In this document: positions 7,626-28,171 of the stretch, piece by piece
How positions within the stretch are numbered: the stretch's first letter is position 1
How the letters are laid out: each line of letters begins with the position of its first letter
DNA from: a virus
Lineage: Duplodnaviria > Heunggongvirae > Uroviricota > Caudoviricetes
Virus record (IMG/VR): IMGVR_UViG_2541047821_000009
DNA: 35,232 bases
Strand: one strand, 5' to 3'
The notes under the pieces: model-generated
Database searches by the model: none
Seen by the model: the letters and a program-made list of their open reading frames with translations, nothing else
What the model was told of the DNA's origin: nothing
Made by a program: the position numbers and the translations under genes

Positions 7626-8651
7626 ATGATGATTGTAAAGGTGATAGACCTTTTTTGTGGTGCTGGCGGATTAACTCATGGTTTGCAACTCGCAGGTCTT
7701 GATGTCGTTGCTGGTATTGACCTTGAGGGGGAATGTCGATTTCCCTATGAAAAAAACAATAAATCAAAGTTTATTGAGAAAGATATCGCTAAAGTAACCA
7801 AAGAGGAATTACTGAAGCTATATGGTGATGCGTCTATAAAAGTATTGGCTGGATGTGCACCTTGCCAACCTTTTTCAAAATATACTCAAGGAAAAGATAA
7901 AGCGGAAGATAAAAAATGGCCTCTTCTTTATGAGTTCGAGCGTTTAATTCGCGAGGTATCTCCAGAAATTGTAACAATGGAGAACGTGCCTGATGTAACT
8001 AAACATAAAGTTTATAATGACTTTTATTGTTCGTTGTTAGAACTGGGATATTATGTTTGGGCATCAAAGGTTGATTGTGTCGAATATGGAATTCCACAGA
8101 ACCGTTCTCGTCATGTATTGTTAGCCTCAAAGTTGGGGGAGATTGAGTTAGTAAAACGTAATGATGTTATTTTGAAAACTGTTAGGGATGCAATAGGTGG
8201 CCTTCCACCATTAGAAGATGGTCAAACAGATCCAAATGATATATTGCATAGAGCCAGTAAATTAAACTCGATTAATAAAAAAAGAATTATACACTCTATT
8301 CCAGGTGGTACATGGAAGGACTGGCCGGAAGAACTTATTGCTGCTTGTCATATGAAGTCTAGCGGTAAAGGGTATGCTAGCGTATATGGGAGGATGTCTT
8401 GGGATAAGCCAAGCCCGACAATTACAACTCTTTGTTATGGTTTTGGGAATGGTCGTTTTGGCCACCCAGAACAGAACAGAGCTATTTCTCTTAGAGAAGC
8501 GGCTTTGTTGCAAACATTTCCTATGGATTATGTTTTTGTTGAAGAACAAGAAAAGTTTGTTATAAGAAGTATTGGAAAAATGATAGGTAATGCTGTGCCA
8601 GTTGAGTTAGGAAAAGTCATTGGGCAATCAATAAAAAATCATTTGAAATAA
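7626..8651 (+). CDS. DNA (cytosine-5)-methyltransferase
   Basis: Motif I 'LFCGAGG', motif IV 'GCAPCQPFS', motif VI 'TMENVPD', motif VIII 'QNRSRHVLLA', C-terminal 'GNAVPVELG'; AT-rich codon usage unlike the phage backbone. Confidence 0.85.
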   Translation: MMIVKVIDLFCGAGGLTHGLQLAGLDVVAGIDLEGECRFPYEKNNKSKFIEKDIAKVTKEELLKLYGDASIKVLAGCAPCQPFSKYTQGKDKAEDKKWPLLYEFERLIREVSPEIVTMENVPDVTKHKVYNDFYCSLLELGYYVWASKVDCVEYGIPQNRSRHVLLASKLGEIELVKRNDVILKTVRDAIGGLPPLEDGQTDPNDILHRASKLNSINKKRIIHSIPGGTWKDWPEELIAACHMKSSGKGYASVYGRMSWDKPSPTITTLCYGFGNGRFGHPEQNRAISLREAALLQTFPMDYVFVEEQEKFVIRSIGKMIGNAVPVELGKVIGQSIKNHLK

Positions 8652-8655
8652 TAAA

Positions 8656-8680
8656 ATGGCCTGCTTTGCAGGCCTTGTGA
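8656..8680. terminator. Bidirectional intrinsic terminator between convergent genes
   Basis: Hairpin GGCCTGC-ttt-GCAGGCC (8658-8674) flanked by an A-run upstream and a T-rich tract downstream. Confidence 0.55.
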
Positions 8681-9361
8681 TTATTTCTCTAAGTATTCAT
8701 TATTATTTATATAATGTTCTATATTATTCGCGATTGCATCAAGATAGGCTATTACTTCTAATGAAATATTCTCTAAATCCTGATATGAAACATTTTTCCC
8801 AATCTCAGCAAATGATACATTTCCATGAGATAAATCATTGCGATGTTGTTTAACAGTGGCTAACTTTTCACCATGTTTAGTGTGAGTGTAATCAGAATGG
8901 GTTGAAAATCCATATATTTTCGATTTTTCTTTTATTTCCTCTCTATCAATATTGCCTGAAAATATTTTCTTTTTGTTGAATGTACCATAAGAAATACCAC
9001 AGGATATGCCTTTAGTAAGTCCGTTGATTAAATTATCGATGTTAACAGATTCATTTTTTAATCTTTTTAAAATTTCTGATTTTAGGTTTTTTTTAAGTTT
9101 GTCAAACTCTATGTTTCTATCATAAATAGTCTCATGTATAAGGCAGATAGCCTCTCTCATTGTTGATTCAATAAGGTTGTATAATAGTATATATACTGCA
9201 CCCTTTAGAGTTTTTCGTGATTGAGATGTAATGGTGAACTTATGTTCTTTATTATCGGATGATATTAATTCCGCACCAGCATGCTCAATAAATTTTAAAA
9301 GATCTAAATAGGCCAAGATTTCTCCTGACCTTTCGTCAAAATCCTCACGAAAACGATCCAT
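8681..9361 (-). CDS. HEPN-like protein (putative RNase effector), partner of the DUF262 protein
   Basis: 226 aa; C-terminal 'QHRNDLSHG' fits the HEPN R-x(4-6)-H motif; its start is 1 nt from the stop of the upstream DUF262 gene. Confidence 0.5.
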   Translation of the reverse strand: MDRFREDFDERSGEILAYLDLLKFIEHAGAELISSDNKEHKFTITSQSRKTLKGAVYILLYNLIESTMREAICLIHETIYDRNIEFDKLKKNLKSEILKRLKNESVNIDNLINGLTKGISCGISYGTFNKKKIFSGNIDREEIKEKSKIYGFSTHSDYTHTKHGEKLATVKQHRNDLSHGNVSFAEIGKNVSYQDLENISLEVIAYLDAIANNIEHYINNNEYLEK

Positions 9362-9362
9362 G

Positions 9363-10505
9363 TTAATCCTCTAATAGTTTGTCTCGCACATATTCAATTC
9401 GTTCAATTACCTTCACGCGACTATTTGCTCCGTCGGAGGTGGTTAATTGTTTGAATTCTTCTGAGCTTAGCCAATCTAAGTTTTTGGGGACAAGGTTAGG
9501 CTCTAGACGTAATGCGAGTGCAGCACCAACAGCGAGAGATTCAAATCTAACTCGAGGTGTAGATTTTGCAGTGATAGTTTTCTTAAAGCCTGCTGGGAAA
9601 TGGTTTTCAACGAAAGACAGAACATTCGAAAACTCTTCTTTCATTGAGTTTTGTTCAGCTTCATCTATATTACTCTTTTCCTTCATGTAATCATTCAGAA
9701 AATCACGCACGGAATGATCAAATTTCTTATATTTATCTAAGTAGGCAAAGAATCTCAATGTAAATTCTAACCGTTCATCTCGTTTTTCTTTAGCCTCAGA
9801 TAAAGGTGCTAACTCCTTAAATTTAGATATTGTCGAGCATGGCTTAATAACCTGCGTATATAAATTTGTTGAGCCAAGTTCTGAACCTTTACGAACTTCC
9901 ATATCTTTCAATATGTCACTACCAGAGTTAATTCGCTCAAAAAGATCCCTGCGGGTTTCTTCATTGCATTTAGAACTCAACTCTATAACACGCACAGGAA
10001 TTCTCATGAAACGGCGTTGGCGTGATAATGGTAAATCTTGGAATCTGAAACCATTAAGAGAACTTAAAGATTTCAGATCTTGTAAAACTAATTCATTGTG
10101 GATAAACGCATGTATGGTTCTAACACGCTGTGAGCCATCAACAATTTCAATCCGTCCATCTAAATCGGGATCTTCTGAAAAGACATCAGCTGTAAATATA
10201 TATGGTATAGGGAAGCCCAAAATTAAAGACTCTATTAATCTTGATTGTCTCTTTTCATTCCAAACAAAGTCCCTTTGATAATCAGGAACAAAGAGTTCGT
10301 TGGTATCATCCTCTAACCCGTTATGATACTTATTAACTAATAACTCAACAGTAAATTCTTTGGTCTCAAAGTCAACATCCTTTTGCTCTGCGCGAATTTG
10401 CTCTTCAGCCTCTTGTTTTATAACTTCTAGCTGAGCTAGGAGTTCTGCCCTTTTTTTGGCATTATCTTCATGTTCTAGTTGAGATTTTAACCCAATAATA
10501 TCCAT
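9363..10505 (-). CDS. DUF262 (ParB/Srx-like, GmrS-type N-terminal domain) protein
   Basis: 380 aa; 'VPDYQRDFVW' and 'IVDGSQRVRTI' match the DUF262 signatures; no HNH/DUF1524 nuclease domain seen in the C-terminal half. Confidence 0.7.
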   Translation of the reverse strand: MDIIGLKSQLEHEDNAKKRAELLAQLEVIKQEAEEQIRAEQKDVDFETKEFTVELLVNKYHNGLEDDTNELFVPDYQRDFVWNEKRQSRLIESLILGFPIPYIFTADVFSEDPDLDGRIEIVDGSQRVRTIHAFIHNELVLQDLKSLSSLNGFRFQDLPLSRQRRFMRIPVRVIELSSKCNEETRRDLFERINSGSDILKDMEVRKGSELGSTNLYTQVIKPCSTISKFKELAPLSEAKEKRDERLEFTLRFFAYLDKYKKFDHSVRDFLNDYMKEKSNIDEAEQNSMKEEFSNVLSFVENHFPAGFKKTITAKSTPRVRFESLAVGAALALRLEPNLVPKNLDWLSSEEFKQLTTSDGANSRVKVIERIEYVRDKLLED

Positions 10506-25308: not shown

Positions 25309-25836
25309 ATGCAGCATTTAAAAAATATTACGGCGGGTAATCCAAAAACGGTTGAACAATATCAATTGACAAAAGACTTTGATGTTGTCTGGTTTTTTTC
25401 AGAAGATGGTAAGAACTGGTACGAAGAACAAAAGTATTTTGCTGATGACACGCTAAAAATAGCGTACGACAAAGATAATATCATCCGCTATGTGGAAAAG
25501 GATGTGACAGCTATCAGACCGGATGGATTAAGTGTTGTTGAAGTGGCGGATATTACTGCTAACCGACGGGCGGACATTTCAGGGAACTGGATGTTTAAGG
25601 ACGGCAAAGTGATTAAACGCATTTATACGGCAGAGGAATTGCTGCAGCAGGCAGAAAACCGGAAAGCCAGACTTCTTGCAGATGCTGAATCCGTGATTTT
25701 GCCGCTGGAGCGCGCGGTCAGACTGAACATGGCAACAGATGAGGAGCGTAGCCGACTGGATGCATGGGAGCGTTACAGCGTTCTGGTCAGTCGTGTGGAT
25801 CCTGCAAATCCTGAATGGCCGGAAATGCCGCAATAA
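25309..25836 (+). CDS. G: Tail fibre assembly chaperone (gpG)
   Basis: 175 aa as in P2 G; immediately after H. Confidence 0.75.
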
Positions 25837-26057
25837 GTTGTATGATCTCTGGAGTGAGCAAACATATCTATGGCACAGAGTAAAGCCTAATCTGACAGGC
25901 CGCTCTGTGTCTGGAGTAGATTTTAGTAAAGCATTATTTTATTAGTGCAAATTCTAATCAATACATTTTATGTATATGATATCCTGCAGACTTTAATGAC
26001 TTGGTTTAGGCTAACCAGATAACACTGAAGGAATATTTTTGATAATTAAGGTGCGGT

Positions 26058-26651
26058 ATGTTTACTAAGCGACGATTAAAAAATATTAACTGGGAGGCAA
26101 GTTCAGTGATTCTTGCTATGGTTCTCTTTGTTGGAAATATATTTTATACAAATCATCGTGATGATATAACTATGGAGGCTGAGAGGGACAGTATCAGAAC
26201 AATGTTTGCATATGAAATCGCTAATAACCATCGCGCTCTCACTTTTCTTGATAAAACGAGATATATTGGCTTTGACGAAAATTCGGAGCATTTTGTTGGC
26301 GAGCCTTTTGCCATTAATGTCAAATCATTAGGGGGGCCTCGCTTACAGATTGCATTAAACCAGACTGATAAAGTGTTTAAATCCTACTTCAGCGAATTAA
26401 GTAAGCTTGATAAAGAGGATGTTACTCTTCTTATGGACTATTACCATGAGCAAAGCATCCTGCTGGAGCGTGTAAAATCTACGTTACAGAAGATGAAAAG
26501 TGGTAATGATATTAAAGTTGATATTGATGGTTACTTATTAGAAGAACACTTCATGAATGAGCTTAATCTTTCTAATATTTTGCTTAAACGCTATAGCCAT
26601 TTGTTGTCACAACACGCCAAAGAACATAAAACAAAAGATTTACATAATTGA
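26058..26651 (+). CDS. Membrane-anchored hypothetical protein at the Z/fun-equivalent locus
   Basis: 197 aa; AAGGTG ribosome-binding site; N-terminal transmembrane helix 'SSVILAMVLFVGNIFY'; strongly AT-rich; no recognisable domain. Confidence 0.6.
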   Translation: MFTKRRLKNINWEASSVILAMVLFVGNIFYTNHRDDITMEAERDSIRTMFAYEIANNHRALTFLDKTRYIGFDENSEHFVGEPFAINVKSLGGPRLQIALNQTDKVFKSYFSELSKLDKEDVTLLMDYYHEQSILLERVKSTLQKMKSGNDIKVDIDGYLLEEHFMNELNLSNILLKRYSHLLSQHAKEHKTKDLHN

Positions 26652-26857
26652 TAATCTGCTAATGGTTATTCATGGGGTAACTATGTTTTATATGTAATCC
26701 AACTCAGATGAATTATTGATTCTGGATAATAACCGCAGAGCGGTATATACCATGACAGGCAAATGTCCGCTTCTTGTTCAAAGCAGACCGTCAGATTTGA
26801 TAACTTTTGGGCTATGTAAATTGTCAGTCGGAAAATGAGTGAGTTCAAATCAGGACA

Positions 26858-26884
26858 GGCGGGCGAATTGCCCGCCTTTTCTTT
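26858..26884 (+). terminator. Intrinsic terminator upstream of FI
   Basis: Hairpin GGCGGGC-gaatt-GCCCGCC followed by TTTTCTTTAT. Confidence 0.55.
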
Positions 26885-26980
26885 ATCTGTTGTTTCATCC
26901 ACTGACCAGCCAGGTCAAATAGCGTCTCATGCTCTGCACAACAGAAAATAGTTGCACCCATTAACCACGGAGTTAAACGG

Positions 26981-28171
26981 ATGAGTGACTATCATCATGG
27001 CGTGCAGGTGCTGGAGATTAACGACGGCACCCGCGTCATTTCCACCGTATCCACTGCCATTGTCGGCATGGTCTGCACGGCCAGCGATGCGGATGCGGAA
27101 ACCTTCCCCCTCAATAAACCTGTGCTGATTACCAATGCCCAGAGCGCAATTGCAAAGGCCGGTAAAAAAGGCACGCTGGCGGCATCGTTACAGGCCATCG
27201 CCGACCAGTCAAAACCGGTCACCGTTGTCGTGCGTGTGGAAGACGGCACCGGCGACGACGAAGAAACGAAACTCGCGCAGACCGTTTCCAATATCATCGG
27301 CACCACCGACGAAAACGGTCAGTACACCGGACTGAAAGCCCTGCTGGCGGCGGAGTCGGTAACCGGTGTTAAACCGCGTATTCTCGGCGTGCCGGGACTG
27401 GACACCAAAGAGGTGGCTGTTGCACTGGCATCAGTCTGTCAGAAGCTGCGCGCTTTCGGGTATATCAGCGCATGGGGCTGTAAAACCATTTCCGAGGTGA
27501 AAGCCTACCGTCAGAATTTCAGCCAGCGTGAGCTGATGGTCATCTGGCCGGATTTCCTCGCATGGGATACGGTCACCAGTACCACCGCCACCGCGTATGC
27601 CACCGCCCGTGCGCTGGGTCTGCGTGCTAAAATCGACCAGGTGCAGGGCTGGCATAAAACGCTGTCCAACGTCGGGGTGAACGGTGTTACCGGCATCAGC
27701 GCATCTGTATTCTGGGATTTGCAGGAGTCCGGCACCGATGCTGACCTGCTGAACGAGGCAGGCGTCACTACGCTGATTCGCCGCGACGGTTTCCGCTTCT
27801 GGGGTAACCGTACCTGCTCTGATGACCCGCTTTTCCTCTTTGAAAACTACACCCGCACCGCGCAGGTGCTGGCCGATACGATGGCTGAGGCGCACATGTG
27901 GGCGGTGGACAAGCCCATCACCGCAACGCTGATTCGCGACATCGTTGACGGCATCAATGCCAAATTTCGTGAGCTGAAAACAAACGGCTATATCGTGGAT
28001 GCGACCTGCTGGTTCAGCGAAGAATCCAACGATGCGGAAACCCTTAAGGCCGGAAAACTGTATATCGACTACGACTATACCCCGGTGCCTCCTCTTGAAA
28101 ACCTGACCCTGCGCCAGCGTATTACCGATAAATACCTGGCAAATCTGGTCACCTCGGTTAACAGCAATTAA
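26981..28171 (+). CDS. FI: Tail sheath protein (gpFI)
   Basis: 396 aa as in P2 FI; GGAG ribosome-binding site. Confidence 0.9.
   Translation: MSDYHHGVQVLEINDGTRVISTVSTAIVGMVCTASDADAETFPLNKPVLITNAQSAIAKAGKKGTLAASLQAIADQSKPVTVVVRVEDGTGDDEETKLAQTVSNIIGTTDENGQYTGLKALLAAESVTGVKPRILGVPGLDTKEVAVALASVCQKLRAFGYISAWGCKTISEVKAYRQNFSQRELMVIWPDFLAWDTVTSTTATAYATARALGLRAKIDQVQGWHKTLSNVGVNGVTGISASVFWDLQESGTDADLLNEAGVTTLIRRDGFRFWGNRTCSDDPLFLFENYTRTAQVLADTMAEAHMWAVDKPITATLIRDIVDGINAKFRELKTNGYIVDATCWFSEESNDAETLKAGKLYIDYDYTPVPPLENLTLRQRITDKYLANLVTSVNSN

Follow-up and report, generated by a model that had tools for sequence, protein, structure and literature searches.

A gene for a 197-amino-acid (aa) protein was analysed in the viral DNA record IMGVR_UViG_2541047821_000009 (35,232 nucleotides (nt); this whole stretch is referred to as the window). 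The element that hosts the gene is a complete P2-like (Peduovirus) prophage of Escherichia coli, and RefSeq copies of the same DNA have baseplate, tail-fibre, sheath, tube and tape-measure genes annotated in the P2 order. The gene is located between the tail-fibre assembly gene G (25309..25836; tail fibre assembly protein in RefSeq) and the sheath gene FI (26981..28171; tail sheath protein in RefSeq). It is a self-contained, horizontally acquired and non-essential accessory cargo gene (moron) at the P2 G-FI slot and not a component of the phage backbone. This slot is known as the Z/fun slot or as moron position 2.

The 197-aa gene and its start codon

The open reading frame (ORF) extends from 26058 to 26651 on the + strand and comprises 197 codons with an ATG start. 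A Shine-Dalgarno element, AAGGTG (26048..26053, +), can be read from the sequence 4 nt upstream of the ATG; the well-formed ORF and the good ribosome-binding site claimed by an earlier, sequence-only reading of this DNA are therefore exact. The coding sequence specifies a basic N-terminal tail, one transmembrane helix and a predicted four-helix bundle. The codons of the transmembrane helix (residues ~12–31) occupy 26091..26150 (+) and are preceded by those of Lys4, Arg5, Arg6 and Lys8; this placement is based on hydropathy, flanking charges and the helix at residues 12–66 of the structural model. The ORF has a GC content of 0.35 and a third-position GC content (GC3) of 0.33, compared with 0.565 and 0.675 for FI and a GC content of 0.45 for G. 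Its RefSeq product name is 'hypothetical protein'.

Gene copies from E. coli, Salmonella, Pantoea and Kosakonia were compared. The ratio of non-synonymous to synonymous divergence (dN/dS) is 0.07–0.15 wherever dS is unsaturated, and the proportion of non-synonymous differences (pN) is far below that of synonymous differences (pS) in every comparison. The same pattern of purifying selection is observed in codons 1–34. The 197-aa ORF is a real gene under strong purifying selection. Because the first 34 codons are constrained and conserved across genera, the long ATG start is settled. A GTG start at residue 17, which is used in the annotations of phages SIDE7 and AC1 (loci L015 and L016, 1549-2094 in each) and in a 181-aa protein cluster, was rejected because it would delete this conserved and constrained N-terminus; the late annotation strips the basic tail and part of the membrane helix. 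A 161-aa 'truncated' copy on the Enterobacter plasmid CP033467 (locus L008, 6001-6486) was likewise rejected, as tblastn shows that residues 2–197 are encoded there.

Boundaries of the cargo and its transcription context

The boundaries of the cargo were defined by alignment of the region to P2 and to the 'Z-region' records of two P2-like coliphages (P2-EC30 and P2-EC53). The left junction (25837..25911, +) is conserved P2-type backbone 3´ of G, the counterpart of what the Z-region records AJ512682 and AJ512676 call the 'left inverted repeat'. It is near-identical in P2, P2-EC30 and P2-EC53 as far as ...CCGCTCTGTG, and the similarity is gone after ~25911. The right junction (26766..26856, +) is also conserved backbone, corresponds to the 'right inverted repeat' of AJ512682, and aligns to the same three phages. 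The inserted AT-rich cargo, ~854 bp with one gene, lies between these two backbone junctions (25912..26765, +) and has a GC content of ~0.35–0.37 compared with 0.55–0.59 in the tail genes. The sequence-only reading had correctly recognised an AT-rich segment between G and FI (GC content of 0.35 versus 0.565 in FI) at the slot where P2 carries fun(Z). It had taken the whole of 25837-26980 as the insertion; this holds for 25912-26765, whereas 25837-25911 and 26766-26980 are backbone common to P2, P2-EC30 and P2-EC53. The flanking inverted repeats (25889-25907 / 26779-26797) were considered as a sign of site-specific insertion and rejected: they match over 19 nt at 79%, with a score of 18 against a shuffle mean of 15 ± 2.3.

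An intrinsic terminator is located at 26857..26887 (+), with a stem at 26857-26877 (9 bp, 7 of them GC) followed by a T-run to ~26887. It folds with -20.1 kcal/mol (z = -4.4), and none of 200 shuffled sequences folds equally well. The terminator is nearly identical in P2, P2-EC30 and P2-EC53 and directly abuts the activator site of the FI late promoter. Because these phages share it in the right-hand backbone, it is not part of the insertion but belongs to the backbone, outside the cargo. The strong terminator that had been proposed to insulate the gene from FI is thus real, though not as an element of the insertion. The late V-to-G operon probably ends with it, and the cargo landed between G and this terminator. 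The FI late promoter region (26888..26957, +) was assigned by alignment to the P2 annotation (84% identity over 240 nt): ~26888-26913 is homologous to the annotated pF activator-binding site (NC_001895 17555-17583) and ~26955-26957 to the pF transcription start (NC_001895 17626-17628). Among the phage records, the right-hand similarity breakpoints fall into three classes (~26762-26778, ~26852 and ~26890) on either side of the terminator, which suggests recurrent recombination around it.

No significant terminator was found between G and 26857-26887; the left hairpin reaches z = -1.3, and the one further candidate is weak and lies within the ORF. Since the gene is co-oriented with G and no significant terminator intervenes, late read-through transcription is expected, and the gene should be transcribed late in lytic growth from the tail operon, whatever its own promoter does. 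A putative promoter of its own would be located in the 5´ region that moves with the gene (25950..26057, +), ~110 nt of which can be aligned with the sequence upstream of a 69%-identical Pantoea copy sited in a different element. The best promoter match in this upstream region is weak (26019-26046, 9/12 to the consensus) and leaves almost no leader, and a scan of the region found promoter-like sites no commoner than in shuffled sequences. In other elements a promoter of its own would be needed, because homologues there oppose the strand of their neighbours. The shared ~110 nt and these opposite-strand contexts indicate that the mobile unit is the 5´ region together with the gene. An Rfam scan of the region returned nothing but a sub-threshold small nucleolar RNA match, and neither the 3´ untranslated cargo nor the left hairpin folds significantly.

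Protein architecture and predicted fold

The 197-aa protein contains one hydrophobic segment, at residues ~12–31 near the N-terminus. Its Kyte-Doolittle 19-mer value is borderline (1.54; family range 1.4–2.3), and the maximum outside this segment is 0.38; the bundle is hydrophilic, with no second hydrophobic segment. A short basic N-terminal tail, one hydrophobic segment and a hydrophilic remainder are common to all members of the family, and length and architecture are conserved down to ~21% identity. Only Arg47, Asn57 and Leu117 are invariant across 23 diverse members, and Ser16, Ala51, Glu53, Ile54 and Tyr129 are nearly so. The conserved residues of helix 1 (47, 51, 54, 58, 61, 65 and 68) are spaced by 3–4 positions and therefore lie on one helical face.

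AlphaFold prediction with close homologues only gave a mediocre model (pLDDT 64.5). When distant members were added, the pLDDT rose to 82.9 with a pTM of 0.71, and the five models agree. In this model, an unbroken helix spans residues 12–66, so that the membrane helix runs into helix 1 of the bundle. Residues 67–91 form a 25-residue non-helical excursion that is strongly conserved among closer homologues (GFDxN...GEPFAINLKSLG), and further helices are found at residues 92–116, 119–148 and 151–183. The fold is predicted with good confidence to be an up-down four-helix bundle continuous with the N-terminal transmembrane helix. The single N-terminal transmembrane helix and soluble domain proposed by the sequence-only reading agree with both the hydropathy and the AlphaFold helix, which are themselves predictions.

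In the 197-aa protein, the N-terminal flank of the membrane segment has charges of +4/-1 and the 15 residues after it +2/-5. Summed over the family, the N-flank holds 67 Lys + Arg and 24 Asp + Glu, and the C-flank 59 and 71, respectively. Because net flank charge favours the N-in/C-out orientation, this topology, with the bundle in the periplasm, is predicted as the likely one. Three distant members of 215–218 aa (P0044, P0050 and P0054) end in a C-x4-C pair that the E. coli protein does not have; such ends would fit a periplasmic disulfide. P0044 also carries a C-x-C-x-C cluster in a long basic N-terminal tail.

Distribution of the family

Of 5426 complete E. coli genomes, 201 (3.7%) contain the segment at full length, in every case on the chromosome. 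A match to some part of the 25837-26980 query, conserved flanks included, is found in 1018 complete E. coli genomes, of which the 201 make up about one fifth. Many carriers are blood isolates and isolates of extraintestinal (ExPEC) or avian (APEC) pathogenic E. coli. Among 112 phage records matching the locus, 13 contain the segment, all of them Peduovirus (including P24E6b, P22H1, P24B2, D8, 12W, PhiR44_1, SIDE7 and AC1). The gene is missing from P2 itself and from most of its relatives, and hence it is non-essential.

The family is small. A word-indexed search of 5.8 billion proteins yielded 38 clusters, and an exhaustive profile search of 1.84 billion representatives yielded 28 matches, fragments and one spurious TPR protein included. 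The identified hosts are all Enterobacterales: Escherichia, Salmonella, Pantoea, Kosakonia, Pluralibacter, Enterobacter, Proteus, Dickeya and Pectobacterium. A scan of species-representative genomes found 2 loci only; the diverse alignment was too divergent for seeding a scan.

That no motif can be recognised, as the sequence-only reading had stated, was borne out by the domain libraries. A Pfam scan of the query gave zero matches at E ≤ 10, and searches with the 23 diverse members gave scattered single-member noise and no consistent match. The only NCBIfam match, rSAM_yydG, is noise (13.8 bits against a cutoff of 300). The sole profile match in the Protein Data Bank (6un9_A, E = 0.23) covers the C-terminal helix only and was judged compositional. 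PHROGs assigns the protein to phrog_3829, 'unknown function'. Many members bear the NCBI name 'lysogenic conversion protein'; the Z-region records cite no experiment for it, and the name most likely stems from a positional label that the depositors of these records gave to unrelated ORFs. A literature search for WP_047335206, phrog_3829 and FIG00644420 returned no paper mentioning any of them. The remote-homology, structure and topology predictions together describe an orphan family with a predicted four-helix bundle and N-in/C-out topology, and the homologues did not turn out to be structural or assembly proteins.

Genomic contexts of the homologues

The contexts of the homologues were surveyed at ~16 independent loci. 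The gene is solitary in every one of them, with no recurring partner gene. The family is a solitary one-gene cassette distributed among P2-like phages, P4-like satellites, other prophages, an integrative and conjugative element (ICE), islands and plasmids. Its hosts span plant pathogens, plant endophytes and animal-associated bacteria. This wide spread argues against a host-specific virulence role and favours a role in bacterial conflicts with mobile elements or in envelope biology at large.

Pantoea ananatis and two Kosakonia species carry the gene in P4-like satellites (loci L006 5402-6001, L012 6001-6591 and L017 ~7989-8591), directly 3´ of the primase gene, and these copies have ~62% aa identity to the P2-borne copy. 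The position after the P4 primase is a minor defence hotspot, and P2 and P4 almost never share defence genes (preprint 10.64898/2026.02.27.708500). The cassette is found in both P2-like and P4-like elements, albeit in different genera.

Known defence genes are near the homologue in 4 of the ~16 contexts (a type II restriction-modification (R-M) pair, a putAbiC-domain protein, SIR2-HerA and an AbiJ_NTD3/PDC-M01A-like protein); the number of loci is too small for a statistical analysis. At the far end of a Salmonella lambdoid prophage (locus L009, 7040-9188), a complete type II R-M pair comes after the homologue; it consists of a Dcm-type methylase and a DUF4928 protein, with PADLOC E-values of 3e-182 and 4e-178; the DUF4928 protein matches the REase_II model (3.6e-178). 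In Proteus mirabilis ATCC 29906, the homologue is located in an islet beside ahpCF with 21–30% GC (locus L018, 3712-7461). Its neighbours there are a 471-aa putAbiC-domain protein with no PADLOC match and a 510-aa HD-domain protein with a weak dGTPase-like match (2.6e-4), and the islet may be an uncharacterised defence islet. In Dickeya, the homologue is located in an ArdC-containing island, ~3 kb from a SIR2-HerA pair. Further homologues are located, on the opposite strand in both cases, in the variable region between tra genes of a Salmonella ICE and within a Pectobacterium siphophage's cluster of tail genes. Others are found where CP4-type islands end, beside RadC, anti-restriction or CbtA/CbeA genes, in a small AlpA islet, and on plasmid or plasmid-like replicons. 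At one contig end (locus L023, 4944-7594), a Tar-type chemoreceptor gene (TarH/4HB_MCP, HAMP and MCPsignal domains) is followed 450 bp downstream by a homologue with 69% identity. This is a single case and may be coincidence; the bundle resembles chemoreceptor sensor domains at the fold level.

Three cargo genes of the window (7626-10505) occupy the second P2 hotspot, which lies between replication gene A and portal gene Q. They encode a cytosine-5 DNA methyltransferase (7626-8651, +; PADLOC DrmMII/MTase_II, 5.5e-92), a protein that matches NsnA (3e-55) and PD-T4-2_A (7e-35) in PADLOC (9363-10505, -), and a 226-aa protein with no PADLOC match (8681-9361, -) that may be the partner of the product of 9363-10505.

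A possible role in superinfection exclusion

The 197-aa protein is tentatively assigned as a superinfection-exclusion factor that has its anchor in the inner membrane, faces the periplasm and acts at the genome entry of incoming phages. The product would insert into the inner membrane through one N-terminal signal-anchor helix, with ~10 basic residues in the cytoplasm and a bundle of ~165 residues, continuous with the membrane helix, in the periplasm. With only ~10 cytoplasmic residues, its action or sensing would be confined to the envelope. The bundle and the conserved 67–91 loop could bind a component of the genome-delivery machinery of the incoming phage or its host factor in the inner membrane, and DNA entry would be blocked without killing of the cell. 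Expression in the lysogen would be driven from the AT-rich 5´ region of the gene, possibly damped by H-NS, and expression in lytic growth would result from read-through of the late tail operon. That a one-gene cassette is kept under selection on many types of mobile elements, often at cargo or defence sites, supports this assignment. Small membrane-anchored, phage-encoded proteins that block entry include HK97 gp15, T4 Sp and Imm, P22 SieA and lactococcal Sie2009; by analogy, the established precedent of envelope proteins that are encoded by tail-gene morons and block entry would also support it.

A number of observations weigh against the exclusion assignment. No sequence or structural similarity to any known exclusion protein was found, and 0 of the 5027 models of PADLOC-DB v2.0.0 matched at E ≤ 10. 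The four-helix bundle is a generic fold that does not point to a mechanism. The topology is predicted from charge bias alone, and this bias is modest when only positive charges are counted (67 versus 59). Several of the ~16 loci have no recognisable defence neighbour, so that guilt by association is thin. The G-FI slot itself is a mixed-purpose hotspot (PMC3573123; iLund4u preprint bioRxiv 10.1101/2024.10.15.618418), with documented cargo that includes defence genes, invertases, tail-fibre swaps and neaT, an acyltransferase gene for virulence that increases fitness in bacteraemia (PMC3573123). The view of the sequence-only reading that single-gene membrane proteins at this slot are typically abortive-infection or superinfection-exclusion factors was thus too strong. 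Published lysogen data point in the same direction. Rousset et al. isolated four P2-like phages, limited their hotspot analysis to A-Q, and challenged E. coli C lysogens with lambda, T4, P1, 186, CLB_P2, LF82_P8, AL505_P2 and T7 (PMC9122126). Two of these four phages bear the gene, SIDE7 (OU784746; protein 100% identical) and AC1 (OV192280; 95%). AC1 alone was reported to be protective, against lambda and LF82_P8, and the cloned TIR locus of the other hotspot reproduces this protection; for the SIDE7 lysogen nothing was reported (PMC9122126). Therefore, no phenotype can be attributed to the 197-aa gene.

These lysogen data are weak negative evidence, because T5, which Fun(Z) blocks, was outside the panel (P2-type challenges are unreported), the negatives are implied, and silencing by H-NS is possible. 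In laboratory hosts, H-NS is able to silence AT-rich prophage cargo. An example is Kunado (YmfE), from prophage e14: silent under laboratory conditions, it blocked T5-like phages once H-NS had been taken away (bioRxiv 10.64898/2026.09.05.749240). In view of the Kunado case, a negative lysogen test is not decisive.

Alternative functions

Two alternatives share much of the evidence cited for exclusion. The protein could alter envelope physiology or signalling as a non-defence lysogenic-conversion factor, with the tethered periplasmic bundle acting through chemoreceptor or sensor-kinase bundles or a transporter and affecting stress, colicin or antimicrobial tolerance or colonisation. The neaT acyltransferase shows that the slot holds non-defence cargo (PMC3573123), the layout is that of a chemoreceptor sensor domain minus the second membrane helix and the signalling module, one homologue (the single case above) adjoins a Tar-type chemoreceptor gene, many carriers are blood and ExPEC/APEC isolates, and no phage phenotype has been reported for lysogens (PMC9122126). 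However, the structural similarity is generic (3–16% identity, with designed bundles scoring highest), no profile match to TarH or 4HB_MCP was obtained, and the occurrence in plant and animal hosts, satellites, ICEs and defence islets agrees better with mobile-element conflict than with a niche trait; this role is considered unlikely. The same mobile-element and defence-neighbourhood evidence is compatible with a defence protein of another type, either an N-out/C-in tether whose cytoplasmic bundle acts on entering DNA or proteins or an oligomerising abortive-infection effector that damages the membrane. SNIPE is such a membrane-anchored single-protein defence, with an N-terminal helix and a cytoplasmic working domain (PMC13190303), and the positive charges alone separate the two flanks weakly. 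The net charge is clearly in favour of N-in/C-out, however, the bundle is hydrophilic, no enzymatic or nucleic-acid-binding motif was found, no context has a conserved adjacent partner sensor gene, and the reports on gene-bearing lysogens contain no defence phenotype (PMC9122126). Another type of defence is therefore judged rather improbable.

A function in the lytic cycle of the phage itself would be consistent with the orientation of the gene along G and with the lack of a significant terminator before 26857-26887. As a late read-through product, the protein could modulate lysis timing, guard against lysis from without, or spare progeny phages from injecting into a dying cell; T4 Sp is an N-terminally anchored periplasmic protein with such a role. 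The gene is, however, absent from P2 and from ~80% of the E. coli genomes that match the conserved flanks. Moreover, its homologues reside in elements without a lytic cycle (satellites, an ICE, islands and plasmids) and, in the siphophage, on the strand opposite to the tail genes, which makes a lytic-cycle function very unlikely. The proposal that the ORF is non-functional, being either a product of chance or a decaying remnant within AT-rich junk DNA, could draw on the lack of a known domain, the base composition and the RefSeq product name. It is refuted by the strong purifying selection across genera, the retention of length and architecture to ~21% identity, the confident and consistent fold prediction and the intact copies in 201 complete E. 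coli genomes. The remaining probability belongs to functions that have not been thought of.

Significance of the locus

The type of locus was already known, and the protein family was already catalogued as unknown (PHROG, NCBI name). The exact boundaries of the cargo, the placement of the terminator in the backbone, the correction of the start codon, the predicted fold and topology, and the spread of the cassette over multiple elements are new. The 197-aa gene is among the commonest E. coli occupants of the classic G-FI cargo site, has no relatives in curated libraries, and represents one well-defined candidate among many uncharacterised hotspot cargos. If it encodes an entry-exclusion factor, a new family, possibly with a new target, would join the short list of understood injection blocks, and it would be relevant to the prediction of phage-therapy host range in carrier ExPEC lineages. 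If it alters envelope signalling instead, it would represent a new type of lysogenic conversion. The cassette is common to P2-like helpers and P4-like satellites, a kind of sharing that has been called rare (10.64898/2026.02.27.708500).

Comparison with known systems

The closest system by position is P2 Fun(Z). It shares with the 197-aa gene the G-FI position, the AT-richness, the status of non-essential lysogenic-conversion cargo, the backbone junctions, the terminator and the FI promoter. In contrast, Fun(Z) has 528 aa, is encoded on the opposite strand and is annotated as blocking the growth of T5. The best BLASTP E-value between the two proteins is 2.1, and a tblastn search of the phage collection gave no P2 match; the 197-aa protein is unrelated to P2 Fun(Z).

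The moron gene 15 of HK97, a temperate phage, is a closer parallel in gene arrangement: a single small gene that lies within the tail-gene cluster in the same orientation and has a terminator after it. HK97 gp15 is an inner-membrane protein that reportedly confers superinfection exclusion, with a block of DNA entry said to have been demonstrated by Cumby and colleagues. However, it has 62 aa, whereas the 197-aa protein has a 165-residue helical domain and its exclusion activity is predicted only; the two proteins, which are unrelated, could not be aligned at E ≤ 100. T4 Sp and Imm, P22 SieA and lactococcal Sie2009 are also products of single phage genes with a short N-terminal anchor and a working part outside the cytoplasm, as is predicted for the 197-aa protein. 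No Pfam or profile similarity was found between these proteins and the 197-aa family, and a search of the viral structure library (BFVD) gave no structural match (best E = 0.087). Kunado, like the 197-aa gene, is an AT-rich prophage cargo gene for a membrane protein (bioRxiv 10.64898/2026.09.05.749240). Its figure legend gives predicted membrane-spanning regions, in the plural, which sets it apart by description from a single anchor with a soluble bundle.

At the level of the fold, the periplasmic bundles of chemoreceptors and sensor kinases (PcaY 6s18, Tsr 2d4u and 4k0d) align with the predicted structure at 6–11% identity, and designed bundles score higher. TarH/4HB_MCP sensor domains resemble the 197-aa protein in that a four-helix bundle is continuous with membrane helix 1. 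Unlike them, the 197-aa protein has no second membrane helix, HAMP or signalling module and ends at residue 197, and it contains the conserved 25-residue non-helical insert between helices 1 and 2 that distinguishes it from chemoreceptor bundles. It is conceivable, though doubtful, that the protein represents a new kind of single-protein barrier, in which a membrane-tethered, periplasm-facing and free-standing four-helix bundle resembling a sensor domain intercepts the genome-delivery machinery of phages or a host entry factor, encoded by a one-gene cassette that is traded among P2-like helpers, P4-like satellites, prophages, ICEs and plasmids.

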